A stretch of DNA of 42,351 bases, from sequence record NC_025430.1; one strand, given 5' to 3'. The position numbers and the translations under genes were made by a program. A model generated the notes under the pieces. It ran no database searches, was not told where the DNA came from, and saw nothing but the letters and a program-made list of their open reading frames with translations. Positions 3,525-42,351 of this stretch are shown one piece after another. How positions within the stretch are numbered: the stretch's first letter is position 1; each line of letters begins with the position of its first letter. The stretch comes from Escherichia phage vB_EcoM-ep3.

Positions 3525-3575
3525 TATGTTACCTCGCAATTATTATTTAACATGAATTCGGATTAACTGCGGTGA

Positions 3576-3605
3576 ATTATGGCTGACGTGTTGTTATACT
3601 GTCAA
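3576..3605 (-). promoter_or_regulatory. candidate sigma70 promoter of the leftward early operon
   Basis: On the - strand: TTGACA (rc of 3600-3605), 18-nt spacer, CATAAT (rc of 3576-3581); about 45 nt upstream of the exonuclease start. Confidence 0.45.
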
Positions 3606-3662
3606 CTTATTTGTAACTAACATTGTTTAGATCAGCGTCACGCTCGCTAATCAACAAACCTT

Positions 3663-3714
3663 AGCTGTACATCAGCTATGCGTTTTTTGCACATCGCGGC
3701 TTGATTGACGTCAA
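3663..3714. promoter_or_regulatory. palindromes in the divergent intergenic region (candidate operators)
   Basis: AGCTG-N5-CAGCT at 3663-3677 and perfect 10-bp palindrome TTGACGTCAA at 3705-3714, between the two divergent promoters. Confidence 0.35.
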
Positions 3715-3730
3715 TGAACATTACTACTGG

Positions 3731-3760
3731 TTGCAACGTCGCCATGTAGTAACATACAAT
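3731..3760 (+). promoter_or_regulatory. candidate sigma70 promoter of the rightward operon
   Basis: TTGCAA (3731-3736), 18-nt spacer, TACAAT (3755-3760); about 40 nt upstream of the helicase start. Confidence 0.4.
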
Positions 3761-3797
3761 TGCGAATACTTTAAATGATGGCGAATGAACGATAATT

Positions 3798-5216
3798 ATG
3801 GGCGTAATACTTAGGGACTATCAATCCGACATTATCAATAAGGCGCGCCTTTCTATGCGGCGCAACCGCCGCGTGTTATTGCAGGCACCAACAGGCGCGG
3901 GCAAAACTGCGCTGGCGTCATACATGGCTGGGGAAACATCGGCCAAAGGCCAGCAGGTGTGGTTTATTTGCCACCGCGCTGAACTGGTATTACAGACCAG
4001 TTTGACATTCAGGAAGTTCGGCATTGACCACGGCTTTATTGCCGCAGGCTATCCCATGAACCTGCGCGCCGGGGTGCAGGTGTGCAGCATCGACACCCTG
4101 AAAAACCGCCTGCACACCCTGCCAGCTCCTAAGCTGGCCATCATGGACGAAGCGCACCACTGTGGCGCGGCTGGATGGGCGCGCGTCAACGCCTGGCTGT
4201 TCGAGAATGGCGCGTATGTAATCGGCCTGTCAGCCACGCCAAAGCGCCTGGACGGCACCGGCCTGGATGACCACTTTGATGACATCGTGTTGGGGCCATC
4301 GGTGCGCTGGCTGATGGATAACGGCCACCTGTCTGATTATCGCATGTTCTGCCCGGACATCCCTGACATGAAGGGTGTACGCAAACAGATGGGCGATTTC
4401 TCAAAAGGAGAAACCGCCGAGAAGATGGATAAGCCGAAACTAACCGGCAACATCATCAGCCACTGGCTGAAATACGCCAGGGGCATGAAAACGGTTGGCT
4501 TTGCGGTCAACATCGCGCACAGCCGCCACTTAACGCAGGCATTCATTGATTCAGGCATCCGCGCCGCGCACCTGGATGGCGGCACCGATAAGGCGGAACG
4601 CAAGCGCATCATTCAGGACTATGCCAACGACAACCTGGATGTGATTTTCAACGTGTCGCTGTTCGGTGAAGGTTTCGACCTGTCAGCTATCGCACAGACT
4701 GACGTGACGATTGACTGCCTGATTGACGCGCAGCCCACACAATCATTGTCGCTGGTTTTGCAGAAAGATGGCCGCGTGTTGCGACCGTCCAAAGGCAAAA
4801 CCGCCATCATCCTGGACCACGCAGGCAATGCGCTGCGTCATGGCTTCCCTGACGATGAACGGGAATGGTCACTGGCTGGCGATGATAGCGGCAGCAAATC
4901 CAGCAGTGCTGGTGGTCCACCGCCGCCAGTCATCTGCAAAGGCTGTTTCAACGCCATCCGCCGACCACTGCCGCCGAAGTGCCCGCACTGCCAGAAGGAA
5001 CTACAGGCCGAAGCCAAAGAAATTGAAGTGGCAGAAGGAGAACTGCGCGAAATGGACGAACGCGCCAAAGAAAGCCTGCGCGCCAAGATGAGGCGCGAGG
5101 AGGACGCTTGCAAGGATATTGGCGCACTTACTGCCCTGGCGATGAAACGCGGGCTGCCGAACCCATCAGGGTGGGCCATAGCGAAGATGGGTGGAAGAAG
5201 ATTTAAGCGCAAATAG
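3798..5216 (+). CDS. superfamily-2 DNA helicase with C-terminal zinc ribbon
   Basis: 472 aa; motif I LLQAPTGAGKT, motif II AIMDEAHH (DEAH-like), GLSATP motif III, C-terminal CKGCF...CPHCQ zinc ribbon. Confidence 0.85.
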   Translation: MGVILRDYQSDIINKARLSMRRNRRVLLQAPTGAGKTALASYMAGETSAKGQQVWFICHRAELVLQTSLTFRKFGIDHGFIAAGYPMNLRAGVQVCSIDTLKNRLHTLPAPKLAIMDEAHHCGAAGWARVNAWLFENGAYVIGLSATPKRLDGTGLDDHFDDIVLGPSVRWLMDNGHLSDYRMFCPDIPDMKGVRKQMGDFSKGETAEKMDKPKLTGNIISHWLKYARGMKTVGFAVNIAHSRHLTQAFIDSGIRAAHLDGGTDKAERKRIIQDYANDNLDVIFNVSLFGEGFDLSAIAQTDVTIDCLIDAQPTQSLSLVLQKDGRVLRPSKGKTAIILDHAGNALRHGFPDDEREWSLAGDDSGSKSSSAGGPPPPVICKGCFNAIRRPLPPKCPHCQKELQAEAKEIEVAEGELREMDERAKESLRAKMRREEDACKDIGALTALAMKRGLPNPSGWAIAKMGGRRFKRK

Positions 5217-5320
5217 TAGAGTAATTAATAGGTATAACCGATTGGCGATATTTACCAAAGGAAATGTATAGTTATTTCACCGGCACACAGGTGCCCAACA
5301 ACAAAAGAGGAAACACCCAA

Positions 5321-5989
5321 ATGGCACGTTTAACCGCTGCAATCCGTGATGGCATCATTGCCAACGCAATCAAAACCAAAGACTTTGCAGGCCGTGACAT
5401 GGCTATTGTTCAGAAGCGCGCTGATTTTGCTGAACGTCTGCGCAAGTATGCGCTTGCACAATATGGCCTTACTGATGCGCGCCTTATTGAAATTAAAAAG
5501 CAGATTGAAGAACTGCAAAACGAAGTTAAGCACGAAGGAGCAAGGTTCGTTCGAATTACTTTTGACTCAACTAACCGTGCTTGGGATGTGAACCTGGCAG
5601 GACAGGCGCGCAGGCTTTATCTTGATGGTACTTGTTCAGGGGAAAGCGTAAAACCGCTTTATAGTGATTCACGCGTAGAATACAGCGACGATAAAATTAC
5701 TCCACATTTCCATGAATCTGATTTCACAGTGCGCGATCCTAAATGGCGCGAAGAACTGGACGCCATTGACCTGGAAGCGGCGCAACTGCGTGAAGAATAC
5801 AACACGCTTAAATCAACACTGGCAGCGACAATTTCAGGATTCACGACGGTGGAAAAACTTCTGGAAGCCTGGCCAGACGCGAAAGAACTGATTCCAGAAA
5901 CAACGCCGATTGCTAAACATCCAGGAACAGGCATTGCGCTGTCGGTAGCTGAACTTAACGCGCTGTGTGGAATTCCTACCGGAAAATAA
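5321..5989 (+). CDS. hypothetical protein
   Basis: ORF trimmed to ATG 5321 (MARLTAAIRD) with AAGAGG 10 nt upstream; coding-like composition, coiled-coil-like central region; no family recognised. Confidence 0.55.
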   Translation: MARLTAAIRDGIIANAIKTKDFAGRDMAIVQKRADFAERLRKYALAQYGLTDARLIEIKKQIEELQNEVKHEGARFVRITFDSTNRAWDVNLAGQARRLYLDGTCSGESVKPLYSDSRVEYSDDKITPHFHESDFTVRDPKWREELDAIDLEAAQLREEYNTLKSTLAATISGFTTVEKLLEAWPDAKELIPETTPIAKHPGTGIALSVAELNALCGIPTGK

Positions 5990-6032: not shown

Positions 6033-6425
6033 ATGAAAAAACTTATCATCGCCGCTTTCATCCTGGCGGCCACCAGCGTCACTGCACAGGCGCGCGAATG
6101 TCTGCCAGGCATGGACCCGGCAAAAGACAACTGCCAGGTGACGGAAGAACAGGAACCGGCACCACAGCCGGAATTACAGGACGTTGACCAGGTTTACTAC
6201 TGCCTGGAACTGCAAAAAATCGCCGTCAAAATCGCTGAACTGCGCGACAAAGGCGCAGGCGAACAGGGCGTGGTCACACTGCTGGCTAACAACAACCAGA
6301 ACCGCATCATTTGGGTGGCGCGCCAGGTGTTCTGGCCGCAATCGGCAAGCCTTCGTCCTGAACAAATCGGCCTGCGTGTGTGGATGCGCTGCAATTCTGG
6401 TGAATATCCGGGAGCCGTCAAATGA
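6033..6425 (+). CDS. putative secreted/periplasmic protein
   Basis: Start trimmed to MKKLIIAAFILAATSVTAQA, a typical Sec signal peptide with AQA cleavage motif; about 130 aa. Confidence 0.55.
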   Translation: MKKLIIAAFILAATSVTAQARECLPGMDPAKDNCQVTEEQEPAPQPELQDVDQVYYCLELQKIAVKIAELRDKGAGEQGVVTLLANNNQNRIIWVARQVFWPQSASLRPEQIGLRVWMRCNSGEYPGAVK

Positions 6426-6529
6426 AACTGTTCCTGCGTGGCGTCCTGGCGATGCTGCATGATGAATTATTCTGGCTGCTGGTGGTGCTGGCCGCCTGTG
6501 CTTACCTGGTGGGGGTTATCTATGGCTAA
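6422..6529 (+). CDS. small hydrophobic membrane peptide (35 aa)
   Basis: ATG at 6422 to TAA at 6527-6529, frame checked: MKLFLRGVLAMLHDELFWLLVVLAACAYLVGVIYG; below the ORF-track size cutoff; its stop overlaps the start of the next gene. Confidence 0.35.
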   Translation: MKLFLRGVLAMLHDELFWLLVVLAACAYLVGVIYG

Positions 6530-6932
6530 CAAAGAACACGCGTTGCAGAACGCAATCCGCAACGCACTGGCGGGTCGCTGCCTGCTGTTTCGCGCCAACG
6601 TGGGCAAGGCGTACACCAGCAATGACGTGGTGAAGGTGCCGCGCCAGATGCCGGTTGTGATGGGGCCGCGTGACGTGCTGCTGAAAAACGCCAGGCCGTT
6701 TGACACCGGGCTGCCGCCAGGGTTTTCCGACCTGTTCGGCCTGGTCAGTGTAGAAATCACACCTGACATGGTGGGGCAGAAAGTGGCCATCTTCACCGGC
6801 CTGGAAGTCAAAGACGGTGCCCGCGTGTCACCATTGCAGCGAAACTTCATCAACGCGGTGAACGACAACGGGGGCCGCGCCGGTGTTGTGCGGTCAGTGG
6901 ATGACGCTGAAAAACTGGTGTTCGGAAAATGA
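6522..6932 (+). CDS. VRR-NUC domain nuclease
   Basis: Start trimmed to MANKEHALQNAIRNALAG; conserved-looking GFSDLFG...EVKDGARVSPLQRNFINAV region resembles VRR-NUC (PD-(D/E)XK) proteins. Confidence 0.7.
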   Translation: MANKEHALQNAIRNALAGRCLLFRANVGKAYTSNDVVKVPRQMPVVMGPRDVLLKNARPFDTGLPPGFSDLFGLVSVEITPDMVGQKVAIFTGLEVKDGARVSPLQRNFINAVNDNGGRAGVVRSVDDAEKLVFGK

Positions 6933-7007
6933 GCATAAAACACATAGCAGCCGACGCACTGCGCTACAGCGTCGAAACCGGACAATCAATGATGGAGCGG
7001 CTAAACC

Positions 7008-7172
7008 ATGATGACAATAGAAAGCATTCGCAGACTGTTTGCAGAAGCACTGGTGACCAGGAACCACATCACGTTCCTGGCGGCCAAAACGGCAATGTGG
7101 AATCTGAACCGTTACGGCATGTTGACGGCGATTGACGTGGAAAACCTGAAAAAAACGTGGGGTGTTGAATGA
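7008..7172 (+). CDS. hypothetical small protein (54 aa)
   Basis: Frame-checked ORF MMTIESIRRLFAEALVTRNHITFLAAKTAMWNLNRYGMLTAIDVENLKKTWGVE; GGAGCGG upstream; stop overlaps the next start (ATGA). Preferred over the overlapping ORF-track entry 6929..7135. Confidence 0.45.
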   Translation: MMTIESIRRLFAEALVTRNHITFLAAKTAMWNLNRYGMLTAIDVENLKKTWGVE

Positions 7173-7405
7173 ATATTTTCAAAGTAGCAATGCAGCGGCT
7201 GGTTGACGCCTGGAAGTTATCAGCCAGGGAAATCAGCCTGGGTTTTCAAATGGCGCTGGTGCGCGCTGGCTGGCGTCCAAAGGTGCGGTCAATGCAAGTG
7301 GTGCTGGACTATCCGAAGCCAGGGCCACGCCGTTCACGCTTCACCGGCATTGCAGCCATGCGCCGTGAAGCACGCCGCAAACGTAACCGGAGGCACGCAG
7401 CATGA
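7169..7405 (+). CDS. hypothetical protein
   Basis: 78 aa, basic C-terminus; ATGA-coupled to both neighbours. Confidence 0.45.
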   Translation: MNIFKVAMQRLVDAWKLSAREISLGFQMALVRAGWRPKVRSMQVVLDYPKPGPRRSRFTGIAAMRREARRKRNRRHAA

Positions 7406-7626
7406 ACCCGGTAGACTTCATCAAAAAACAAGTCATGGCCGAACTGGTGAAGCAAGGCGCATCACCTGGCACAGCGCAGCACGCGGCTGACTACGCGGCG
7501 CAACAGTACCGCACCACGTCAGCCATCGGCAAAGACCCGTTCGCTGAACTGATACGCCTGGCAGGCGCAATGGCCATGAAGCACCAGGCCGGTTTCCGCT
7601 TCGTGATGCCGCGCGCATCAAAATGA
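7402..7626 (+). CDS. hypothetical protein
   Basis: 74 aa; ATGA overlap with the upstream gene; coding-like composition. Confidence 0.5.
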   Translation: MNPVDFIKKQVMAELVKQGASPGTAQHAADYAAQQYRTTSAIGKDPFAELIRLAGAMAMKHQAGFRFVMPRASK

Positions 7627-7648
7627 CGTAAGATTATTTCAAAAGGTA

Positions 7649-7686
7649 TTTACTTTCGGAAATGCGCCCTGTACTATGGGCGCATT
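7649..7686 (+). promoter_or_regulatory. candidate promoter with overlapping inverted-repeat operator
   Basis: TTTACT (7649-7654), 17-nt spacer, TACTAT (7672-7677); perfect 9-bp inverted repeat AATGCGCCC (7661-7669) / GGGCGCATT (7678-7686) straddles the -10; 20 nt upstream of the HTH gene. Confidence 0.45.
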
Positions 7687-7706
7687 GTTATTACGAGGCT
7701 ATTACT

Positions 7707-7895
7707 ATGGACGAAAGGACCGAACGACTTCACAACATTATGGCTGAACATGGCTTAACCTGCCGCGACGTTGGCCGTTTACTTGGGCGCACTGAACAAA
7801 CGGTGCTTATCTGGCGCTGTAAGGGCGGGAAAGTCATTCCGACCCACCAGCTTGAATTGCTTGAACTGAAACTGAACGCGCAGGCGGAAAAATGA
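7707..7895 (+). CDS. helix-turn-helix transcriptional regulator
   Basis: Trimmed to ATG 7707 (MDERTERL); HTH-like segment LTCRDVGRLLGRTEQTVLIWR; the longer ORF-track start at 7662 lies inside the palindrome. Confidence 0.55.
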   Translation: MDERTERLHNIMAEHGLTCRDVGRLLGRTEQTVLIWRCKGGKVIPTHQLELLELKLNAQAEK

Positions 7896-10567: not shown

Positions 10568-11545
10568 ATGGGTAGCATTGTGAATAAATACGAATTGCAT
10601 TTAGGTGATTGCCTGGAAGTTATGAAGTCTATTCCAGCCGGTAGCGTTGATTTGGTTCTGTGTGATCCGCCGTATGGCACCGCTGGCGGAATGGGAAAGG
10701 GTGAAGAACGCTATTCACGAATTGCGAACGCTGAATGGGATAACGCTATTTCTCCGCAGGCCATTTTTGAAGAATGCAACCGCGTTTTGCGAACTAACGG
10801 CGCTCTTATTCTGTTCAGCCAGGAACCTTACACCAGCAAGTTAATCACAGCGGCGCATGGAAATCTGCCTTTCAGTTATCGACTAATGTGGCTGAAAGAC
10901 CATTTCTCTAACTCGCTGTTGGTAAATAAAGCGCCTGTTTCATACTTTGAAGATTTAGTGGTGTTCTTCAAGAAATATGACACGCTGGCACAGCATCCGC
11001 TAAGGGATTATGCCAAAAAAATCATGGAATACATTGGCAGAAATATAAAGCAGATAAACACTGATTTAGGTCACAGGCGCGCGGAACACTTTTTTTATGT
11101 TGAATCAACGCAGTTCGGGCTGTGTACTGAAAAGACATACAACCAGATTATTGCGCACTATGGGCTTAGTGTGTGTGACTGGCTTATGACTTATGCTGAA
11201 ATGTTAGAAATTGACCGCAGGTTTGCCCGCAGGTTTAACCTGGCGGATGGTGCAAAATACAAATCTAACGTTCTTCAGTACAAAAAGGATTATACCGGCC
11301 TTCACCCAACACAGAAGCCGGTAGCACTGCTGGCTGACATCATCAGGACATATTCAAACCCTGGCGAAACGGTTCTAGATTTCACTATGGGGAGCGGGTC
11401 AACAGGAGTCGCCTGCATCAATGAAGGCCGTAACTTCATAGGAATTGAACTTGATGAAACCTATTTCCAGACAGCGCAGGGGCGCATAATGGAAGCAGCA
11501 GCCGCAAACGATAACCAGGCAAGTAGCAATTCTGTTGTAGCATAA
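10568..11545 (+). CDS. DNA methyltransferase (N6-adenine/N4-cytosine, beta-class)
   Basis: 325 aa; motif IV LCDPPYGT precedes motif I LDFTMGSGSTG (beta-class order); AT-rich relative to neighbours; no cognate restriction enzyme gene nearby. Confidence 0.85.
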   Translation: MGSIVNKYELHLGDCLEVMKSIPAGSVDLVLCDPPYGTAGGMGKGEERYSRIANAEWDNAISPQAIFEECNRVLRTNGALILFSQEPYTSKLITAAHGNLPFSYRLMWLKDHFSNSLLVNKAPVSYFEDLVVFFKKYDTLAQHPLRDYAKKIMEYIGRNIKQINTDLGHRRAEHFFYVESTQFGLCTEKTYNQIIAHYGLSVCDWLMTYAEMLEIDRRFARRFNLADGAKYKSNVLQYKKDYTGLHPTQKPVALLADIIRTYSNPGETVLDFTMGSGSTGVACINEGRNFIGIELDETYFQTAQGRIMEAAAANDNQASSNSVVA

Positions 11546-14553: not shown

Positions 14554-15033
14554 ATGAAAATTTCATCCAATGGCCTGGCTGTTCTTAAATACTTCGAGAA
14601 TTGCCACCTTAAGGCATATCCAGATCCTGCCACCGGTGGTGCGCCGTGGACGATTGGATGGGGCCACACAGGGCCAGAAGTTAAACGCGGGCTAGTGTGG
14701 ACACAAAAGCAGGCTGATGATGCACTGGTGGCCGACCTGGCACGATTTGAACGCGCAGTTAGTGCCGCCGTTCGTGTTCCGCTGAACCAGGGCCAGTTTG
14801 ATGCGCTGGTTTCGTTCACTTACAACTTGGGTGAAGGCAATCTGAAATCCAGCACGCTGCTGAAAATGGTCAACGCTGGCAACTTTGCCGGTGCTGCTGA
14901 ACAGTTCAAACGCTGGAACAAGGCGAACGGCAAGACGATGCGCGGCCTGACCCGACGCCGTGCCGCTGAACAATGCTTGTTCCTGGGCATGGGTGGTGCG
15001 TCAGCTATTGAACGCGGTGTGGCGGCAGCATGA
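14554..15033 (+). CDS. endolysin (GH24 T4-lysozyme-like)
   Basis: Trimmed to ATG 14554 (MKISSNGL) with GAGGA RBS; FENCHLKAYPD...TIGWGHT motif typical of phage lysozymes. Confidence 0.88.
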   Translation: MKISSNGLAVLKYFENCHLKAYPDPATGGAPWTIGWGHTGPEVKRGLVWTQKQADDALVADLARFERAVSAAVRVPLNQGQFDALVSFTYNLGEGNLKSSTLLKMVNAGNFAGAAEQFKRWNKANGKTMRGLTRRRAAEQCLFLGMGGASAIERGVAAA

Positions 15034-16240: not shown

Positions 16241-18248
16241 CCCGTTTGCCAACATTGAAGGCATTGACCAGGCTATCCGGCGCGCACAACAACAATTGTT
16301 GCCGCCGCCAGACATGAAGCCGTCAGAGTGGGCGCAGGCTAATATCCGCATTCCGTCTGGCAACGCCGTGCCAGGACCGCTGCGCCTGGATAACGCGCCA
16401 TACCAGCGCGAACCAATGGACATGCTGGTTGACCCTGATTGCTACCGTGTAACGCTGATGTGGGGCGCGCAGGTGGGCAAAACCATGCTGGCACTGTGCG
16501 TGCAGGCGTACAGCGTAGCCGCTGAACCGCGCAGCCAGATGATGATGCAGCCAAGCCAGGATGACTTGCGCACCTGGCTGGAAACGAAATTCAACCCTCT
16601 GGCGGAAGAATGCGCGCCGGTAAACAACGCCATTGCCAAACCGCGTGGCCGCGACGGGGTGAACAACCAGAAAATGAAATCATACCCTGGCGGGTTCTTG
16701 ATGTTCGCCTGGTCCGGTTCGCCAAAGACCATGCGCGGGCGTTCAGCGCCGCTGATTGTATGTGACGAGGTAGACGGATATGAACGAACCAGCGAAGGGC
16801 ACCCGGTTGGCCTGCTGTGGCAGCGTTCTGCCACCTTCGGTGACCAGCGGTTTTTGCTGGAAATCAGCACCCCTACCCTTAAAGGTGAATCGTACATCGA
16901 AAAAGCGTATGAAATGGGCGACCAGCGGCACTTCTTTGTTTGCTGCCCGCACTGTGACGATCACGTTACGCTTGAATGGGAAAACGTCAAATGGGATGGC
17001 CAGCGGGAAACTGACGCGGAAACGCTGGCGGCCATCGAAGAACAGAAGCCGGAAACAGCGCACCTGTATTGCCCATCGTGCGGCGCGCAGTGGAATGACG
17101 GCGAACGGATAGCGGCTATCCGTCAGGCCGAAGAAAAGGGCGCAGGCTGGAAGGCGTCCAGGCCGTTTGAAGGGCACGCAAGCTACCACCTGAACGAACT
17201 ATACAGCACATTCCGCAAAGTACCGGCCATCGTGCGTGACTACCTGGACAAGCTGAAAACGGACGACCTGCAAACCTTCACCAACGTCAGCCTGGCGCGC
17301 ACCTGGGAAGAAGAAGGCGACAAGGTTGACCCGGATTCACTGATGGCACGCCGCGAGGAATACGCCGCGCAGGTGCCTGCTGGTGGGCTGTATATCACCG
17401 CAGGCATAGACATGCAGGTTGACCGCCTGGAATGTGAGGTGGTGGCCTGGGGCGTTGGTGAAGAATCCTGGTCATTGGGTTACCACGTCCTGTGGGGCGA
17501 CCCTCTGACGCCAGATCCGTGGGATGCGCTTGATGACCTGCTGGCGGAAACCTACCAGCACGAAACCGGCGCAGTGCTGCCGATCATGGCCGCCTGCCTG
17601 GATACCGGCGGCACCAGCGGTTACACGCAGGCCGCCTATGACTACGCCAGAGGGCGCACAGGCCGCCGCCTGTTTGCCATCAAAGGAGTGGGCGGTTGGG
17701 GTCGTCCTATCGTGGAGAAGCCGCAGCGCAAGCAATCCGGGAAGGATGCCCGCAAAGTGGATTTATTCCTGGTGGGCACCGATGAAGCCAAGCTGATAAC
17801 TGCACGCCGTTTAAACAAGACGGCACCGGGGCCAGGTTATTGCCACTTCCCTGCTGACCGCGATGAAGAATGGTTTAAGCAAATCACCGCTGAAAAGCTG
17901 ACCATGCGTTACGTGAAGGGCCAGCCAATCCGCGAGTGGAAGAAACCCGACCGGGCGCGCAACGAAGCACTGGACTGCCGCAACTATGCGCTGGCCGCGC
18001 TTAAAATCATGCAGCCGTCATTCCGCCGCCTGGCTGAAAAGTTTGGCGTAGCGAACGACAACGCGCCACCGGAACGCCGCAAGCGGCTTCCGAACGTCAA
18101 ACCCATCGTGAAACCGGTGGAAGTGCCGCAACCGGCCAATGACAAACCCCAAGAAGAAGAAAAACAGCAAGTCACAGAGACTAAGCCCATTAAACGTTCC
18201 GCCAGGGCATCCAAACGCCGTGGCGGTGGATGGGTTAGCCGCTGGTGA
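16200..18248 (+). CDS. terminase large subunit (lambda gpA-like)
   Basis: 682 aa; Walker A-like MWGAQVGKT, CPHCDDH zinc-binding-like segment; overlaps the small-subunit gene as in lambda Nu1/A. Confidence 0.9.
   Translation: MAMTKGATVTAKNNPFANIEGIDQAIRRAQQQLLPPPDMKPSEWAQANIRIPSGNAVPGPLRLDNAPYQREPMDMLVDPDCYRVTLMWGAQVGKTMLALCVQAYSVAAEPRSQMMMQPSQDDLRTWLETKFNPLAEECAPVNNAIAKPRGRDGVNNQKMKSYPGGFLMFAWSGSPKTMRGRSAPLIVCDEVDGYERTSEGHPVGLLWQRSATFGDQRFLLEISTPTLKGESYIEKAYEMGDQRHFFVCCPHCDDHVTLEWENVKWDGQRETDAETLAAIEEQKPETAHLYCPSCGAQWNDGERIAAIRQAEEKGAGWKASRPFEGHASYHLNELYSTFRKVPAIVRDYLDKLKTDDLQTFTNVSLARTWEEEGDKVDPDSLMARREEYAAQVPAGGLYITAGIDMQVDRLECEVVAWGVGEESWSLGYHVLWGDPLTPDPWDALDDLLAETYQHETGAVLPIMAACLDTGGTSGYTQAAYDYARGRTGRRLFAIKGVGGWGRPIVEKPQRKQSGKDARKVDLFLVGTDEAKLITARRLNKTAPGPGYCHFPADRDEEWFKQITAEKLTMRYVKGQPIREWKKPDRARNEALDCRNYALAALKIMQPSFRRLAEKFGVANDNAPPERRKRLPNVKPIVKPVEVPQPANDKPQEEEKQQVTETKPIKRSARASKRRGGGWVSRW
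18141..18157 (+). repeat. 17-bp motif GACAAACCCCAAGAAGA, copy 1
   Basis: Exact copy inside the terminase 3' end, in frame encoding DKPQEE; 114 bp upstream of the GTG start at 18255. Confidence 0.9.
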
Positions 18249-33459: not shown

Positions 33460-33487
33460 CAACAATCATTGTTTGAGGCGATAAGAA

Positions 33488-37005: not shown

Positions 37006-37412
37006 CCAGTTTCACGATTTTAACCGGGCAGACCAACATCATGATGATGTTGGGCGGCTTCCAGTTCTGCATCCTTACTGCGGCATATCAGGAACTGAAC
37101 CGCCACAGCGAATATAAGTGGCCATCGCAGCACCGCTTTGGCCTGCGCCCATCATCGCAATTCGTGGGCATCGGAGAGGAAACCATCACCCTGGCTGGCA
37201 TCATTTACCCTGAATACCGTGGCGGGTTTCAGCAGGTGGAGCAAATGCGCAGCATGGCTGGCCGTGGTCAGCCGCTGTTGCTGGTTGATGGCCTGGGCAA
37301 ACTGTGGGGCCGTTGGGTGATTGAAGCTATTGACGAAAAACAATCATTGTTTGCGGCGTTCGGTGCGCCGCGCAAACAGGAATTCAATTTGCAACTGCGG
37401 CGGTTCAACTGA
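37002..37412 (+). CDS. tail protein U (P2 gpU-like)
   Basis: 136 aa; MMMLGGFQFCILTAAYQEL and FVGIGEETITLAGIIYPEY follow the P2 gpU pattern as I recall it. Confidence 0.85.
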   Translation: MTSFTILTGQTNIMMMLGGFQFCILTAAYQELNRHSEYKWPSQHRFGLRPSSQFVGIGEETITLAGIIYPEYRGGFQQVEQMRSMAGRGQPLLLVDGLGKLWGRWVIEAIDEKQSLFAAFGAPRKQEFNLQLRRFN

Positions 37413-37621
37413 TGCAAACTTACATTACCAAAGACGGTGACACGGCGGATTACATCGCCTGGAAATACTACGGCAACCAGGATGCGGGCACCGTGGAAGC
37501 ACTGGTGGACGCCAACAAGGGGCTGGCCGACCGTGGGCCTGTGTTGCCTGCTGGCCTGGTCATCAACCTGCCGGAAATTACGACACCAGCGACCACGCAA
37601 GGTATCAAATTATGGGATTGA
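37412..37621 (+). CDS. tail protein X (P2 gpX-like, LysM-like)
   Basis: 69 aa; DTADYIAWKYYGNQDAGTVEALVDANKGLADRGPVLPAG matches the gpX/LysM-like pattern. Confidence 0.82.
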   Translation: MQTYITKDGDTADYIAWKYYGNQDAGTVEALVDANKGLADRGPVLPAGLVINLPEITTPATTQGIKLWD

Positions 37622-38718
37622 CTGGAATTGCGCCAGCGTTTCGCGTGCTGGCCAACGGCGATGACATCACCGCCAAAATCAATGAACGACTGATAAGCCT
37701 TAGTCTGTCTGACGGCGTGGGGCTGGAATCTGACACGCTGGAAATCAGCCTGGCGGATGATGAACCGGCCAACCCAATCCAGATGCCGGAAACAGGCGCA
37801 GAACTGGAACTGTTCCTGGGCTATGACAACTGGACCCAACGCATGGGCCTGTTTATCTGTGACGAAGTGGAACTGGCTGGCTGGCCAGGCACCATGACCA
37901 TCAGGGCGCGCGCTGCCACCTATGACAAGTCAAAGGGCGGCAAAACCGACCTGCAAACGCAGAAATCACGAAGCTGGACCAAAGGCACGAAGTTTGGCGA
38001 CATGGTGAAGAAGATAGCCAGCGAACACGGCATGGAATCCGCCGTGTCAGAAAGCATGGCCAAAATCACCCTGCCCCACACCGACCAGGCCGATGAATCT
38101 GACCTGAACCTGTTGCTGCGCCTCGCCAAGAAATATGACGGCGTAGTGAAGCCAGCAGGCGGCAAAATCACGGTCACGAAGAAAGGCGAAGGCAAGACGG
38201 CCAGCGGCGAAGAACTGCCAACCATCACGCTGACGGCGCAGGATTGCACCGCATTCAGGCTGACCAGCCAGAAGCGCGAAAACGCAGGCACGGTGGTGGC
38301 TTACTACCAGGTGACGAAGAAGGCCGCGCGCAACGAAGTGAAGGTGGGCGAAGGTGAGCCGGTCAAACGGATTGGCAAATACTACCCGACGCAGGCAATG
38401 GCCCTGGACGCTGCCAAAGCCGAACTGGCCAAGCGCCAGCGCAACCAGGTGACCGTTGCCGTTACGCTGCCGGGTGACCCATCCATTGCCGCAGAATGCA
38501 AACTGGTGCTGGTTGGGTTCCGTGATGGCATTGATGGCGAATGGCTGATTACCCGCGCAGATCACCGGCTGGATGACAACGGCTATTCTTGCGACGTGGA
38601 AGCAACGAAGCCGAACAGCGAAGAAGAACCGAAGGTGGAAGTTATCGAGCGCAAGAAGCCGCAAGAAAGCGACCCGCCTGACGATGATGGCCCTGGGCAC
38701 GTCATCGAAGAAAAATAA
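37612..38718 (+). CDS. tail protein D (P2 gpD-like)
   Basis: 368 aa; N-terminus PAFRVLANGDDITAKINERLISLSLSD matches the P2 gpD pattern; last gene of the tail operon. Confidence 0.88.
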   Translation: MGLTGIAPAFRVLANGDDITAKINERLISLSLSDGVGLESDTLEISLADDEPANPIQMPETGAELELFLGYDNWTQRMGLFICDEVELAGWPGTMTIRARAATYDKSKGGKTDLQTQKSRSWTKGTKFGDMVKKIASEHGMESAVSESMAKITLPHTDQADESDLNLLLRLAKKYDGVVKPAGGKITVTKKGEGKTASGEELPTITLTAQDCTAFRLTSQKRENAGTVVAYYQVTKKAARNEVKVGEGEPVKRIGKYYPTQAMALDAAKAELAKRQRNQVTVAVTLPGDPSIAAECKLVLVGFRDGIDGEWLITRADHRLDDNGYSCDVEATKPNSEEEPKVEVIERKKPQESDPPDDDGPGHVIEEK

Positions 38719-38810
38719 CAACAAACATTGTTGTAATCATTCTACATCATCGTATATCATTACCTTAACCGGGCGGATAACCTGCCCGGATAAATAACGA
38801 GGTAATGCCC

Positions 38811-39284
38811 ATGTGTTTATTACTTTCCCACTCTATCGCCGGAACCGGCGGACCGTACCCACAACCTAAAAATAACGGCTGGATTGATTGGCATGGTGGT
38901 GAATGTCCGGTGGATAGTGACGAAATTGTTGAGGTCAAATTCCGTGAACCTTGCCCGATTCATTTCAGTAATGACAGAGCAGGAGATTTTACATGGCTTC
39001 ATTATGGACATACCGCCGACATCATTGCTTACAGACTGGTGAACAAGCATGAATTAGAAACCGCTTGCATTGATGTGAAGCGCGATGCTGTCAAATCCAA
39101 TGATGCGCAGTTAGAAGCCGACCTGAATGACTGCATTGGCCAGCCGCAAAGCGATGACGATGCGCGTGATGAAATACTTTACGAACTGGCTAACTTTGCG
39201 GCCACTACAAAAACCAGTCTTGACATTGGTGTTGCCACAGAAATTGCAATTTGGCTTTCTGGCAAAGGTTATCGTAAACAATGA
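38811..39284 (+). CDS. hypothetical protein
   Basis: About 157 aa; first gene after the tail operon; several Cys/His residues; no family recognised. Confidence 0.45.
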   Translation: MCLLLSHSIAGTGGPYPQPKNNGWIDWHGGECPVDSDEIVEVKFREPCPIHFSNDRAGDFTWLHYGHTADIIAYRLVNKHELETACIDVKRDAVKSNDAQLEADLNDCIGQPQSDDDARDEILYELANFAATTKTSLDIGVATEIAIWLSGKGYRKQ

Positions 39285-39364
39285 TTGTTAAAAAACGCGA
39301 TCTGCCCATCATTATTGTATGGGCTTCATTTCTAATCACTTCATTTGTATTGGGATTTATGTAA

Positions 39365-40240
39365 ATGGCTACTATCGGGCAACTGTATAAATCAAAACAA
39401 ACCGCAGCAACGCCGCGCAAGGTGTTTTGGGTGCCGCTGGCTGAACTGTATGTGGAAGATGGCTACAACATCCGCGACGTGGACCAGGCGCACGTTGAAG
39501 AATTCCGCGATGCGTACCTGGCCGGTGAATATGTGCCGCCGCTGACCGTGGAAGTGACGCAGCAGGGCATCAAGGTGATTGATGGCCACCACCGCTTTGC
39601 CGGTGCAAAGATGGCCGCAGAAACCGGCCTGGAACTGCGCCTGGAAGTGAACGACATCACCGGCACCAGTGAGGCTGACAAAATCGCGCTGATGGTCACC
39701 AGCAGCCAGGGCAAGCCGCTGGAACCGCTGGAACGCGCCAAAGCCTATTCGCGCCTGAAAGCGCAGGGCTGGACCAATGACGAGATAGCCAAGAAGGTGA
39801 AGCGCAGCCCGTCAGACGTGGCCAACATGCTGGCCCTGGCTGAATGCCCGGAACCCATCAAAGACATGGTGCGCGGTGGCCAGATGTCCTACGTGACCGC
39901 CACCGAACTGACCCGCCAGCACGGCACCGAAGCCGAAGCCGTGGCCGCACAGGCGCTGGAAGAAGCCAAAGCCGCTGGCAAGGATAAAGTAACAAAGAAA
40001 TTCACCGAACCGAAGGCACCAAAAGCGCCGAAGGCCAAGCCGGAAGCAATCCAGCCACCGTTCGGCAAAGACAAGCTGACGCGCCTGGCTGACCTGGCCG
40101 TGCAAATCGAACTGGTCCACAGCGATGAACGCCTGGAAGATGCCGAGCCTGACGAATCCATGACCCTGCGCGCACCTGCTGGCGTGGTGCGTGAATTCAT
40201 GGCGCTGGTGGCTGACTACGTGGGCGGGGTGCCGGAATGA
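39365..40240 (+). CDS. ParB-like nuclease-domain protein
   Basis: 291 aa; N-terminal ParB/Srx-type motif (KVIDGHHRF) plus HTH-like segment (GWTNDEIAKKVKRSPSDVANMLAL); Lys/Ala/Pro-rich linker; no parA nearby. Confidence 0.7.
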   Translation: MATIGQLYKSKQTAATPRKVFWVPLAELYVEDGYNIRDVDQAHVEEFRDAYLAGEYVPPLTVEVTQQGIKVIDGHHRFAGAKMAAETGLELRLEVNDITGTSEADKIALMVTSSQGKPLEPLERAKAYSRLKAQGWTNDEIAKKVKRSPSDVANMLALAECPEPIKDMVRGGQMSYVTATELTRQHGTEAEAVAAQALEEAKAAGKDKVTKKFTEPKAPKAPKAKPEAIQPPFGKDKLTRLADLAVQIELVHSDERLEDAEPDESMTLRAPAGVVREFMALVADYVGGVPE

Positions 40241-40548
40241 AAGGCGAACTGAAAGCCGGTGGCCTGGCGCTGGTGATTGGTAACAACCCGCACGCTGGGA
40301 AGTGTGTAACGCTGGTTCGTTTTGTAACCCCTGGCCAGATGTTTAACATTCCTACAGGCGGAGAGACTTTCTTATCTCTGAAAGCCGATGCCTCATGGTT
40401 GGTGACCGGAAATGTTTATCCAAAAGGATGTGAACATGATCAAGGCTGGTCGCTTTTTGCGCCAAGATGCCTGCTGCCAATCGACGGCGACGACCACCAG
40501 GAACAGGAACAACTAACCAAAGACAAACCAGCCGAACTGACGGCGTAA
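40237..40548 (+). CDS. hypothetical protein
   Basis: 103 aa; ATGA-coupled to the ParB-like gene. Confidence 0.45.
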   Translation: MKGELKAGGLALVIGNNPHAGKCVTLVRFVTPGQMFNIPTGGETFLSLKADASWLVTGNVYPKGCEHDQGWSLFAPRCLLPIDGDDHQEQEQLTKDKPAELTA

Positions 40549-40557
40549 GGGGCATAT

Positions 40558-40779
40558 GTGAAACTGCGAAAAGTGGATGTGAAAGGAACCTATAACATCA
40601 GGTTCATCATTTCGATGACGGCAAGTGATGGCCGTGAGGCGTGCTGGTATCTTGAAACAGTAGAACGTTCTCTGAATAAAGCAGATAAGGGGAACTGGCG
40701 TAATGCAATAGCAGCCGATCTGCTACGAGGACGCCAGGCGCTGCGTGACATTATAAACAACCTAGCCGGTGAGGCGTAA
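40558..40779 (+). CDS. hypothetical protein (GTG start)
   Basis: 73 aa; GTG preceded by GCGTAAGGGG, the same context seen before the next gene. Confidence 0.4.
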   Translation: MKLRKVDVKGTYNIRFIISMTASDGREACWYLETVERSLNKADKGNWRNAIAADLLRGRQALRDIINNLAGEA

Positions 40780-40788
40780 GGGGATAGT

Positions 40789-40968
40789 GTGGAAGAAATA
40801 GAATACGTTGTAACACTGAAAATGGAAGATGGCGCGATGTATGAGGCTTTACGCGCCACCGCAACCAAAGATGGTGATCTATCTGTGCAGGCACCAGACC
40901 AGGAAGCCCTACTGGCAGTCCTGGATAAGATGCAGGAAATGATAGATTATATCCGTGAAAACATGTAA
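40789..40968 (+). CDS. hypothetical small protein (GTG start)
   Basis: 59 aa, frame checked; GTG preceded by GCGTAAGGGG; followed by a strong terminator. Confidence 0.35.
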   Translation: MEEIEYVVTLKMEDGAMYEALRATATKDGDLSVQAPDQEALLAVLDKMQEMIDYIRENM

Positions 40969-40973
40969 CACAC

Positions 40974-40998
40974 AGCCCGCCTCTTCGGCGGGCTTTTT
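40974..40998 (+). terminator. intrinsic terminator
   Basis: AGCCCGCC-TCTTC-GGCGGGCT hairpin followed by TTTTT. Confidence 0.8.
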
Positions 40999-41003
40999 GT
41001 TGG

Positions 41004-41030
41004 TGGCGACCCAGGAAGGAATCGAACCTG
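41004..41030 (-). other. tRNA 3'-end-like fragment (T-loop, acceptor 3' strand, CCA); candidate att core
   Basis: - strand reads CAGGTTCGATTCC TTC CTGGGTC G CCA: canonical T-loop, 7-nt acceptor strand, discriminator and CCA, but no matching 5' acceptor strand (GACCCAG) or D/anticodon arms upstream. Confidence 0.5.
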
Positions 41031-41571
41031 TAACATACAGCTTATACTACCTGCCGCAGACGCGCGAGGCGATGAATAAATGGGAAATATTGTTGCGAAA
41101 TGCACTTGCGTGATATAGGATTAAATTGTCAGTTGTAGAGATTCACGCTGTCGAGAGATACACGATGACCGCCGTGAAAGGACGGCACACAACAGGTAAG
41201 AGCATTGAACCCGTAGACCTCGCGGATTTGGTGAAAGGTGCCGCGCATTGCTCTTTCCGTTGTGGTGAATGCGCAGGCTGATGCGCGACCAATGTATAAA
41301 CAGCGCTCATGGCAAGCAGTAACCAATCTGCGCCTCAAGACAGCGTCACTGGTAGTGCGGGCGCTCTAACCAGTAAGCCGGAGTTCAGCACCGGCCACCA
41401 CAACACGCGCCGTGATGCGCTTTTGCGAACACTTCCAACCACCAGGGTGTTACCTCGCAACGTGAAAGCGCATCGCAGTGCGACATTCGCACAGACTGGA
41501 ACTTACCAGACTAGTGATTCCAATAAGGCAGGTGATCTGTATCTCGCATCACAGCGTCACGTGACACAAAA

Positions 41572-41592
41572 CCCCGCTTAGGCGGGGTTTTT
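41572..41592. terminator. bidirectional intrinsic terminator
   Basis: CCCCGC-TTAG-GCGGGG hairpin flanked by ACAAAA upstream and TTTTTCTTT downstream; lies just 3' of the - strand SprT-like gene and at the end of the + strand ORF-poor region. Confidence 0.75.
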
Positions 41593-41598
41593 CTTTGG

Positions 41599-42270
41599 TC
41601 ATTCGTCATCGCCTTCCGGAGTCATCGCGCCATGTTCCGGGCAGTGAGGCGGCCCGACCTCCAACCATTTTTGCGTTACCCGAACCGTGTAGCCGCATTC
41701 CTGGCATTCGCATTTTTTCAGCCTGGTGGTTTGCTTAGGCTTCGCCGTGGACGCACCGCCGACCGGTGCCACTTCGATTTCCTCCCCTTCATCATCGTCA
41801 CCGCCTTCATCCAGGCCGATGCGCAGGCGTGGCACTTTTATGGATATGCCACGGTCAAACGTCAGCTTGGCGTGCGGCATGGGGCCAAGTTCGTCCAGGA
41901 ACGGTTTGACGTACTCTTTGAATTTCTCGCCAGGCGTGGTGGCGGTCATCGGTCCATTCAGGCCAACAGCCTTGCACACAGTGGCAAACGCGCCCTTGTG
42001 GCCACAGTCAAAACCAACGGTGGCGTGCGTCAGTTCGTGCCACAGGTGGTTTGCGACCAGGTACGGTTCCACCTGGTCTGGCATGATGAATATTTCAAAG
42101 GTGTTGTCTGCACTGCACTTGCTGTGCCAGCACTGTGCCGCCGTACTGGACCGCGCGCCGCTGCTGCAAAAGCCAACTGACACCCGGAATTTTGGCATTT
42201 CATAGCCGAATTCTTTAAAACGCGGCGCAAACTTCGCCGCCAAAGCATTTAACCAACCTTCACGGTCCAT
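41599..42270 (-). CDS. SprT-like zinc metalloprotease with C-terminal zinc ribbon
   Basis: 223 aa; HExxH motif (WHELTHA) after a basic N-terminal region, acidic linker, C-terminal CECQECG...HCPEHG zinc ribbon; GAGG RBS and a perfect TATAAT (rc of 42306-42311) upstream on the - strand. Confidence 0.55.
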   Translation of the reverse strand: MDREGWLNALAAKFAPRFKEFGYEMPKFRVSVGFCSSGARSSTAAQCWHSKCSADNTFEIFIMPDQVEPYLVANHLWHELTHATVGFDCGHKGAFATVCKAVGLNGPMTATTPGEKFKEYVKPFLDELGPMPHAKLTFDRGISIKVPRLRIGLDEGGDDDEGEEIEVAPVGGASTAKPKQTTRLKKCECQECGYTVRVTQKWLEVGPPHCPEHGAMTPEGDDE

Positions 42271-42322
42271 ATATATTTCCTCTCAATGCGTTTAAACGTG
42301 TTTAGATTATACAAAGGCAAAG

Positions 42323-42344
42323 AAAAACCCGCCATAACGGCGGG
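42323..42344 (-). terminator. intrinsic terminator for a - strand transcript entering from beyond the window
   Basis: CCCGCC-ATAAC-GGCGGG hairpin (42328-42344) preceded on + by AAAAA; 22-nt near-identical to the terminator at 1-27. Confidence 0.6.
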
Positions 42345-42351
42345 GTGGTTA

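Follow-up and report, generated by a model that had tools for sequence, protein, structure and literature searches.

ParB-type systems and the Jilinvirus locus

The genome of Escherichia phage vB_EcoM-ep3 (sequence record NC_025430.1) carries five genes behind its tail operon, one of which encodes a ParB-like protein. The whole stretch analysed, 42,351 bases given as one strand, is called the window, and its gene order and the early genes wrapping round its ends mark it as a complete phage genome of the Jilinvirus type. The five-gene region is a genus-conserved accessory operon around an orphan ParB-like protein, joined to a cassette hot spot that holds two lineage-restricted genes. An earlier note on this DNA had put the five genes forward as cargo and as a candidate undescribed defence system. 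A novel defence system is not demonstrated, and the region is an accessory region of an ordinary kind.

The chromosomal ParB/Spo0J proteins of T. thermophilus (1VZ0), B. subtilis (6SDK), and M. xanthus (7BNK) align with the N-domain and helix-turn-helix (HTH) of the window protein over about 140 residues (E=1.5e-10 to 7e-9). The window protein differs from them in having neither a ParA partner nor the motif LG[KR]GL, in carrying GHHR and TSSQG in place of the cytidine triphosphate (CTP) motifs GERR and ENLQR, and in scoring 49.3 bits on TIGR00180 (parB_part), which is below the cutoff of 58.45. Its candidate sites, with CAACAA toward the centre, are also unlike parS, which has TGTTTCAC toward the centre.

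KorB of plasmid RK2 uses palindromic operators, some of them at promoters, that are scattered over RK2. It is a weak sequence match to the window protein (8QA8, E=2.9e-5), and a palindrome over the -35 element, as found here, would fit KorB-like repression. KorB is a CTP-dependent clamp with the partner KorA, whereas the window protein has its CTP motifs replaced and is a candidate repressor only. KorB is of the ParB type and has its role in gene regulation (PMC11790492). ParB folds are also reused outside CTP-dependent partition in the phage thymine dioxygenase ParB activators and in the CTP-independent, ParB-like ParT (PMC13229309, PMC12260392). The ParBs associated with the 5mYOX enzymes have no HTH, and no 5mYOX gene was identified among the window open reading frames (ORFs) examined; ParT keeps a ParA.

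Divergent orphan ParBs are common on mobile elements (PMC12704722), and ParB-like genes in lambdoid early operons were noted in a Genome Research survey that left their function open (PMC12315714). The lambdoid orphan genes (phrog_1033), which lie in the early-right operon or the nin region, are true orthologs of the window gene, with 47-60% identity and the same GHHR N-domain. They differ in being sited between cII and O/P or beside MT-A70, in having no AACAA-N3-TTGTT sites, and in their recognition helix, which is xADVDHHLxLL as against SPSDVANMLALA in the window.

The same cluster occurs in the published Jilinviruses ECOO78 (gp32-gp28), ECO1230-10, HeidiAbel (Bas97_0025-0028), and Arya (gp27-gp32), where it is annotated as hypothetical proteins and a 'ParB-like partition protein'. 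Compared with these, the window has a short allele of the first gene, g1, and a tandem of the last two genes, g4 and g5, that is particular to this genome. Temperate-phage morons and hot spots likewise comprise small, variable genes of lower guanine-cytosine (GC) content in a fixed slot, with a short conserved junction and a terminator. Unlike morons, the window cassettes lack individual promoters; a conserved operon carries them along, and the junction chains them translationally.

Layout and conservation of the operon

The genes of the cluster and their borders are the following, with lengths in amino acids (aa).

37612-38718: gene D, PF05954 Phage_GPD (E=1.2e-12)
38811-39284, + strand: g1, 157 aa, short allele of a genus-core protein; beta domain with W-x-x-W-GG-x-CP and helical domain at the C-terminus
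39365-40240, + strand: ParB-like gene, 291 aa, with a ParB/Srx-type N-domain, HTH_ParB, the linker KAPKAPKAKPEA, and a variable C-terminal domain
40237-40548, + strand: g3, 103 aa, phrog_2529, with conserved ends and allelic middles; genus core
40558-40779, + strand: g4, 73 aa, GTG start, basic, pI 9.65
40789-40968, + strand: g5, 59 aa, GTG start, acidic, pI 4.05, charge -9.5
40974-41004, + strand: intrinsic terminator, a hairpin at 40974-40994 of 8 pairs (7 G-C) and then a T run; it closes the operon and is conserved in relatives

The five ORFs come after gene D in the same direction, where the earlier note had placed them, and the strong terminator that it described at the cluster end is present. 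The order D, g1, ParB-like gene, g3 is identical in 16 of 16 distinct relatives, which comprise published phages, 40-44 kb contigs from ENA, Logan, and JGI, and a single E. coli assembly from NCBI. Their full order is gene D, a conserved intergenic region, g1, the ParB-like gene, sometimes an extra gene of 80 aa, g3, one to three small genes, and the terminator; tRNA-Arg and the integrase gene (int) come next where they survive. From g1 to the start of g3 the cluster has 91-96% nucleotide identity to published Jilinviruses. The wider region 38700-41120 is 86-96% identical to the Jilinviruses (Iiscvirinae) ECO1230-10, ECOO78, HeidiAbel_Bas97, Alux-21, and Salmonella PT1, and Enterobacter phage Arya matches it along short stretches only. 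An exact-pattern scan of IMG/VR for further relatives gave known genomes only. Because g1, the ParB-like gene, and g3 stand in the same order in every relative, and g1 has 320 homologs (nearly all on phage-sized contigs of 40-44 kb), these three genes are the core of the genus and not cargo. The GC content is 0.44-0.50 in g1 and g3-g5, as against 0.57-0.61 in the ParB-like gene and the backbone.

The most likely start of g1 is the ATG at 38811, which lies 8 nucleotides (nt) past the Shine-Dalgarno (SD) sequence GAGGT and matches that of the 99%-identical 157-aa homolog P0001; the ATG at 38805 was rejected as too near the SD. The g1 of the window is without a module of about 75 aa that most relatives have at the N-terminus. 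In the region of 38798-38813, relatives have a three-codon mini-ORF (ATG CCC ACA TGA) overlapping the g1 start codon, and in the window the swapped N-terminus puts the ATG of this mini-ORF in frame with g1, hence the candidate starts 38805 and 38811. The C-terminus of g1 (...YRKQ, then stop) is invariant, since a palindrome at 39277, described below, covers its last codons (...RKQ and the stop). The remainder of the C-terminal domain occurs in three allelic forms. The gene g3 overlaps the stop of the ParB-like gene by ATGA and, judged by this overlap, is translationally coupled to it. A GAPS report on the HeidiAbel homologs gave KOW/SH3-like matches for g3, and for g1 promiscuous small phage domains only, namely DUF551, DUF6378, Lar, and DUF3310-like (PMC11990801).

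Family scans of the five proteins (Pfam, PHROGs, NCBIfam, PADLOC) returned the ParB HTH and partition families and PHROGs of unknown function only. The proteins of g1, g3, g4, and g5 have no match in Pfam, NCBIfam, or PADLOC, which bears out the remark that the partners had no recognisable domain. In PADLOC-DB 2.0 there are two marginal matches to the ParB-like protein (E=0.009 and 0.044) and none to the other four proteins. Likeness to the anti-defence protein Lar is absent from g1, g3, g4, and g5 in Pfam, PHROG, and NCBIfam, no dedicated anti-defence catalogue having been searched. The profile searches that the earlier note had called for gave a recognisable domain in the ParB-like protein only. 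An Rfam scan over 38600-42351 gave nothing near the gathering score, its matches being terminator look-alikes.

The cassette slot after g3

Two junctions border the variable part of the operon.

40542-40560, + strand: cassette junction 1, GGCGTAAGGGG-CATAT-GTG, with the g3 stop TAA within the SD and then the g4 start
40773-40791, + strand: cassette junction 2, GGCGTAAGGGG-ATAGT-GTG, with the g4 stop within the SD and then the g5 start

The slot after g3 is the only variable part of the locus and is a recombination hot spot, with at least 10 unrelated occupants among about 13 genomes. These include the g4 type, the g5 type, a 114-aa protein (ECOO78 gp28), a 70-aa protein (HeidiAbel), Arya gp31 (phrog_7644) and gp32 (phrog_519), an 88-aa protein (phrog_28696), a 175-aa beta-clamp-like protein (PF02767, E=7.7e-6), and a hydrophobic mini-ORF of 19 codons. 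A further occupant is a 66-aa zinc-ribbon protein (phrog_599), which has a weak likeness to Lar, a protein of restriction alleviation (PF14354, E=1.4e-5, under the cutoff). The g4-type gene lies directly 3' of g3 in two relatives (L048 and L049) and the g5-type gene does so in a third (L050); the window carries both in tandem, each type being found singly in relatives.

The sequence GGCGTAAGGGG ends g3 and every g4- or gp31-type cassette, with the next start 5 nt on, in all relatives; Arya, at only about 70% identity in its coding DNA, keeps the junction too. The stop TAA sits inside the SD AAGGGG, and each cassette is therefore set up for translational coupling to the preceding gene. The identical context of the two GTG starts, which had been pointed out before, is confirmed and fits such coupling, although the spacer is N5 in both and not N4/5. 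The string GCGTAAGGGG has no further occurrence in the window beyond the two GTG junctions. The suggestion that this context co-regulates two particular genes does not hold, and as a feature special to g4 and g5 it was rejected, the same boundary being present at every cassette. The simplest reading of the 19-nt junction string is that it serves as homology for cassette swapping, and the g4-g5 tandem of the window may have arisen through one exchange at the junction.

The genes g4 and g5 are protein-coding: in a coding test against homologs, the differences fall in the third codon position in 15 of 18 cases for g5 and 28 of 46 for g4. Within the first 19 codons of g4, 9 codons differ and 7 of these changes are synonymous, which supports GTG as the real start; in the AF2 model the residues of this stretch form part of the sheet. 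Of 5.8 billion protein clusters, just 6 contain g4 and just 2 contain g5, and those clusters with a long contig are all on contigs of the window's phage type. A tblastn search of 50,697 phage records gave no match to either gene. Both vary at a fixed site and have a deviant GC content (0.48-0.50 as against 0.57-0.60), as morons and exchangeable cassettes do, and g1, the ParB-like gene, and g3 do not show this combination. The cargo position claimed for the whole cluster therefore holds for g4 and g5 in their exchangeable slot and not for the other three genes.

The ParB-like protein

The N-domain of the ParB-like protein is marked by N35-x-R37, DGHHR at 72-76, and TSSQG. Pfam finds HTH_ParB only (E=3.8e-13), and PHROGs assigns phrog_1033, 'ParB-like partition protein'; the N-terminal ParB/Srx-like domain is visible only via Spo0J/ParB alignments and TIGR00180. 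A phmmer search of the PDB aligns residues 38-182 with Spo0J/ParB (E=1.5e-10), with weaker alignments to Noc and KorB; ParB, Noc, and KorB are the only matches of the PDB sequence search. The CTP motifs are replaced at the aligned positions (GHHRFA for GERRxR of box II, TSSQG for ENLQR of box III), while Arya and two further relatives (L053 and L054) have GQHR (DGQHR) and ANDG there. Box I retains its Arg, and box II its last Arg.

The N-terminus MATIGQLYKSKQTAATPRKVFWVPLAEL has no ParA-interaction motif (L/F/I)G(K/R)G(L/F/I), a criterion taken from PMC12704722. No ParA ATPase family is matched among the window ORFs scanned, and none is present in the HeidiAbel or Arya annotations, which bears out the absence of a ParA partner reported earlier. 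By the criteria of that survey (PMC12704722), the protein is a divergent orphan ParB, and its motifs make a canonical partition protein very unlikely. Of the proposed role other than partition, this much stands; for the nuclease part of it, no motif or homology was detected in Pfam, PDB, and NCBIfam searches. The linker is indeed of low complexity, as had been noted, and no DNA-modifying enzyme is fused to the ParB-like gene or lies beside it in the cluster.

Across 40 distinct family members, conservation is highest in the N-domain, with Y29, E31, G33, N35, R37, D72, G73, H75, and R76 invariant, including residues at nucleotide-pocket positions. Variation lies in the recognition helix and the C-terminal third. 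In IMG/VR, a scan gave another 42 ortholog loci (L006-L047; 47-60% identity), all in lambdoid-type genomes, where some lie between a cII-like gene and the replication genes O/P and others in the nin region. An MT-A70 adenine methylase lies directly 3' of the ortholog in 11 of the 42 (nin region), and a few orthologs carry a fused domain of the dATP/dGTP pyrophosphohydrolase family (PF04447, E=9e-36).

The window protein is a mosaic. Its N-domain is 63-71% identical to lambdoid orthologs as against 43-53% to Arya, L053, and L054, whereas its HTH is 65-66% identical to Arya, L053, and L054 as against 46-55% to lambdoid orthologs. The HTH and C-terminal domains follow the phage genus, and the recognition helix is SPSDVAN(M/F)LALA in all Jilinvirus ParBs.

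Control region and dispersed palindromes

The 92-nt intergenic region between gene D and g1 holds the following elements and a ribosome-binding site.

38719-38733: palindrome CAACAA-ACA-TTGTTG, perfect, 1 nt past the D stop and overlapping the -35; candidate operator
38731-38760, + strand: sigma-70-like promoter TTGTAA-N18-TATCAT, 9/12 consensus matches, with TTGCAA in relatives
38769-38789, + strand: hairpin CCGGGCGG-ATAAC-CTGCCCGG where the operon transcript is predicted to begin, z = -3.05 with a fold of -19 kcal/mol

This region is nearly invariant in all relatives, including Arya with its coding DNA of about 70% identity. The -35 of the promoter-like element lies within the palindrome, which is kept in all relatives, Arya, L053, and L054 included. 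In the hairpin the stem is kept and the loop is variable, and L053 and L054 have the compensatory change of CCGGGC/GCCCGG to CCCGGC/GCCGGG. No terminator is present between gene D and g1. The operator right half together with the -35 forms the sequence ACATTGTTGCAATC, a second copy of which lies about 190 nt upstream of int in relatives that keep int (L048, 4514-4527; L062, 7173-7186; L054, 6231-6244). This repetition hints that the operon and int may be under a shared regulator.

The shorter form AACAA-N3-TTGTT has seven sites in the window, with starts at 1468, 14969, 16288, 33461, 37339, 38720, and 39277, as against 0.08 expected, and none of 100 shuffles has more than one. Apart from the site in the control region, they are as follows.

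1468-1480: AACAATGATTGTT, inside the AAA_24 gene
14969-14981: AACAATGCTTGTT, lysis region
16288-16300: (C)AACAA-CAA-TTGTT(G), near the 5' end of the large terminase gene
33461-33473: AACAATCATTGTT, between the tail tube and chaperone genes
37339-37351: AACAATCATTGTT, inside the gpU gene
39277-39289: AACAA-TGA-TTGTT, spanning the g1 stop codon, 76 nt upstream of the ParB-like gene

Three of the seven sites are within 2 kb of the ParB-like gene and the other four are scattered through the genome. Arya has six sites as against 0.09 expected. In the five sites that are orthologous between the window and Arya, the arms are 100% identical, the flanks are 29-84% identical, and two spacers differ. The palindrome is present in 25 of 25 Jilinvirus-type loci and in 0 of 42 lambdoid loci (432 kb), even with one mismatch permitted in the longer form, and de novo palindrome counting beside the lambdoid ParB genes gave no common candidate site. 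Its presence thus correlates with the Jilinvirus as against the lambdoid recognition helix of the ParB-like protein.

Other uses of the sites were considered. As late-promoter operators they were rejected, there being no site upstream of the lysis, terminase, or sheath operons. As cI operators they were likewise rejected: none lies in the cI/helicase control region, and cI is excluded as the binder because the window, which has no cI, retains all sites.

The integration scar and the phage genome

Two relics follow the terminator.

41004-41044, - strand: 3' portion (about 41 nt) of tRNA-Arg(UCU), from the anticodon loop to the 3' end, with a damaged T stem; relic of the tRNA/attP region
41048-41113, + strand: integrase remnant, the last 21 codons (41048-41110) and the stop, 86% identical by tblastn to residues 383-403 of HeidiAbel Int

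ARAGORN finds no tRNA in the window, and the tRNA-Arg(UCU) is complete in HeidiAbel, Arya, L048, and others. Compared with HeidiAbel (L002), the window lacks 6387-7870, which comprises the tRNA 5' half and all but the end of int. The deletion break lies in the tRNA anticodon loop, and the same junction in ECOO78, L050, and L059 makes the deletion either old or recurrent. The junction is the scar of a lost integration module. Of the att-like site described earlier, the tRNA fragment is thus real and the locus abuts a relic integration site; a working att site was rejected, the fragment being joined to the last 21 int codons with no intact integrase. The scar fits remarks on decayed integrases in this phage group made in PMC11990801 and in the title of PMC5754474.

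The window genome has lost both the integrase and the cI repressor. No cI homolog is found in it by tblastn, and at 3539-3798, in the interval between exonuclease VIII and helicase, there is a 259-nt gap where HeidiAbel and Arya have a cI-like repressor gene. Region 38700-41120 has no megablast match in 5,426 complete E. coli genomes, plasmids included, and the phage is therefore not a common integrated prophage. The Jilinvirus lifestyle was termed enigmatic in the BASEL study, whose isolates gave clear plaques and no lysogens, and HeidiAbel is reported to be highly restriction-sensitive (PMC11990801).

The E. coli 'prophage' cited in the BASEL study (L068; GCA_012697465.1, AATBGZ010000031.1) is a stand-alone contig of 42,429 bp whose first base is within the tape-measure gene. 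Its tRNA-int region is internal and intact, and cI is absent. The Logan assembly of SRR11124264 (L067) is 30 nt longer, as expected of a circular k=31 contig. The phage genome of this isolate looks unintegrated.

Among the early genes of the window, those at 5264-5989, 6438-6932, and 10568-11545 code for a protein with an Nmad5 domain (E=2e-36), a nuclease of the VRR-NUC type, and an orphan N6_N4 DNA methyltransferase (E=2e-30) with the motif DPPY. The methylase gene is the one at 10568-11545, and its homolog in HeidiAbel is annotated as hypothetical. Downstream of the scar, 41119-41598 comprises about 480 nt without a convincing ORF, from the integrase relic to a bidirectional terminator (41568-41591), and the counterpart of 41207-41395 is absent from ECOO78 and HeidiAbel. 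The - strand gene at 41599-42270 encodes a 223-aa protein of phrog_6361 (unknown function) with no Pfam match. With its HExxH motif HELTH and a C-terminal CxxC...CPEH ribbon, it looks like a SprT-type metalloprotease.

Proposed function and alternative explanations

The reading that we favour, tentatively and at a little under even chances, is that of a conserved accessory operon closing the Jilinvirus right arm, in which the ParB-like protein binds the palindromes and autoregulates and g4/g5 are cargo. The five genes of the operon are tightly packed; ahead of them lie a promoter-like element, its -35 covered by a palindrome, and a 5' hairpin, and a strong terminator follows them. The ParB-like protein would be a sequence-specific DNA binder that is no longer a CTP-dependent partition clamp. 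Its genus-specific HTH would bind the AACAA-N3-TTGTT palindromes, it would repress its own promoter, and by occupying several genome sites it might mark or organise the phage DNA, broadly as KorB acts on RK2 and SopB on prophage N15. The proteins of g1 and g3 would be its likely partners, and g4 and g5 would be host-interaction cargo.

Several points weigh against this reading. The binding of the palindromes by the ParB-like protein is one that we infer from the enrichment, conservation, and position of the motif and from its correlation with the recognition helix, a correlation that phylogeny confounds. Other window genes encode possible binders of the palindromes, namely a Cro-like repressor (7662-7892), a MerR/Xis-like protein, and a late activator. 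The promoter scan found 3 sites as against 2.8 expected, which by itself is not above chance, and read-through from the tail operon is possible because no terminator follows gene D. The structure models of g1, g3, g4, and g5 gave no informative match. The Lar-like cassette of the relatives is below the Pfam cutoff, and HeidiAbel is reported as a very restriction-sensitive phage (PMC11990801).

If the palindromes served one of those other regulators, such as the Cro-like or the MerR/Xis-like protein, or a host factor, the ParB-like protein would be unrelated to them and might use its His-rich N-domain to act on host DNA, for example as a nuclease or NTPase. The further HTH proteins of the window suit this explanation, as does the N-domain, whose status as the best conserved part, with H75 and R76 invariant, suggests ligand binding or catalysis; proteins of the ParB/Srx fold bind ATP, GTP, or CTP (PMC12704722). 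It is nonetheless unlikely: promoter-specific regulators do not usually have sites within coding regions and clustered at the parB gene, none lies in the early control region on which cI and Cro would act, and the searches above gave no sign of a nuclease.

An extension of the favoured reading, improbable as it stands, takes the GHHR-type orphan ParB to be a ParA-less, CTP-independent self-marking system of the phage, which would load at about seven sites, one of them its own operator, and form a complex with g1 and g3. Such a nucleoprotein complex might steer the fate of the phage DNA through silencing, episome persistence, or the recruitment of modification or anti-defence functions. If true, it would help to explain the Jilinvirus lifestyle.

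In prophage N15, centromere sites are scattered likewise, and SopB acts on them. The window protein could be such a centromere-binding protein and the palindromes parS-like, so that an unintegrated genome persisted as a carrier state or plasmid-like prophage with host functions replacing ParA. The dispersal of the palindromes together with their clustering near the parB gene, the stand-alone contig of 42,429 bp with its second assembly 30 nt longer, and a genus lifestyle that has been called enigmatic (PMC11990801) all agree with maintenance of this kind. Set against them are the absence of ParA and of a ParA-binding motif, the replaced CTP motifs, the lack of any match in the 5,426 complete E. 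coli genomes and their plasmids, the clear plaques without lysogens (PMC11990801), and the retention of the ParB-like gene in genomes without int and cI, the window included, which leaves episome maintenance distinctly improbable.

A role as adaptor in DNA modification or nucleotide metabolism is also quite improbable. Here the ParB-like protein would target or activate a modifying enzyme, for example the N6_N4 methyltransferase at 10568-11545. The MT-A70 gene directly after the ortholog in 11 of 42 lambdoid loci, the PF04447 fusions, and the orphan N6_N4 methylase and Nmad5 protein of the window are in keeping with it, and elsewhere ParB activates phage 5mYOX enzymes (PMC13229309) and ParB-methylase fusions are enriched in prophages (PMC12704722). 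However, the window methylase is 28 kb off in another operon, about 31 lambdoid orthologs have no adjacent methylase, the 5mYOX-associated ParBs are without the DNA-binding domain that the window protein has, and the strong restriction sensitivity of HeidiAbel (PMC11990801) also speaks against it.

That all five genes form one undescribed defence or anti-defence system, sitting as cargo beside an attachment site, is very improbable in spite of the position between the tail genes and the relic tRNA/int module, the single operon and terminator, the four proteins of five without a known domain, and the Lar-like cassette in the same slot of relatives, since g1, the ParB-like gene, and g3 are an invariable genus core, g4 and g5 are independent of each other in relatives, PADLOC has no credible match, and the lambdoid ParB orthologs stand in different contexts without g1, g3, g4, and g5.

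Significance for the genus and the ParB family

The conserved accessory operon is a further example of an orphan phage ParB-like gene and of a hot spot for small accessory genes, both of which are known, and GenBank already has near-identical copies of the conserved part. As far as could be checked, the details of the cassette junction, control region, and palindrome family have not been described before. Cassette exchange at a 19-nt translation-coupling junction gives a rule for finding cargo genes in about 300 related metagenomic genomes. The conserved and statistically strong palindrome family and its candidate binder make the function of a widespread orphan ParB subfamily, common in lambdoid prophages, testable, and the hints of unintegrated persistence bear on the lifestyle question left by the BASEL study.

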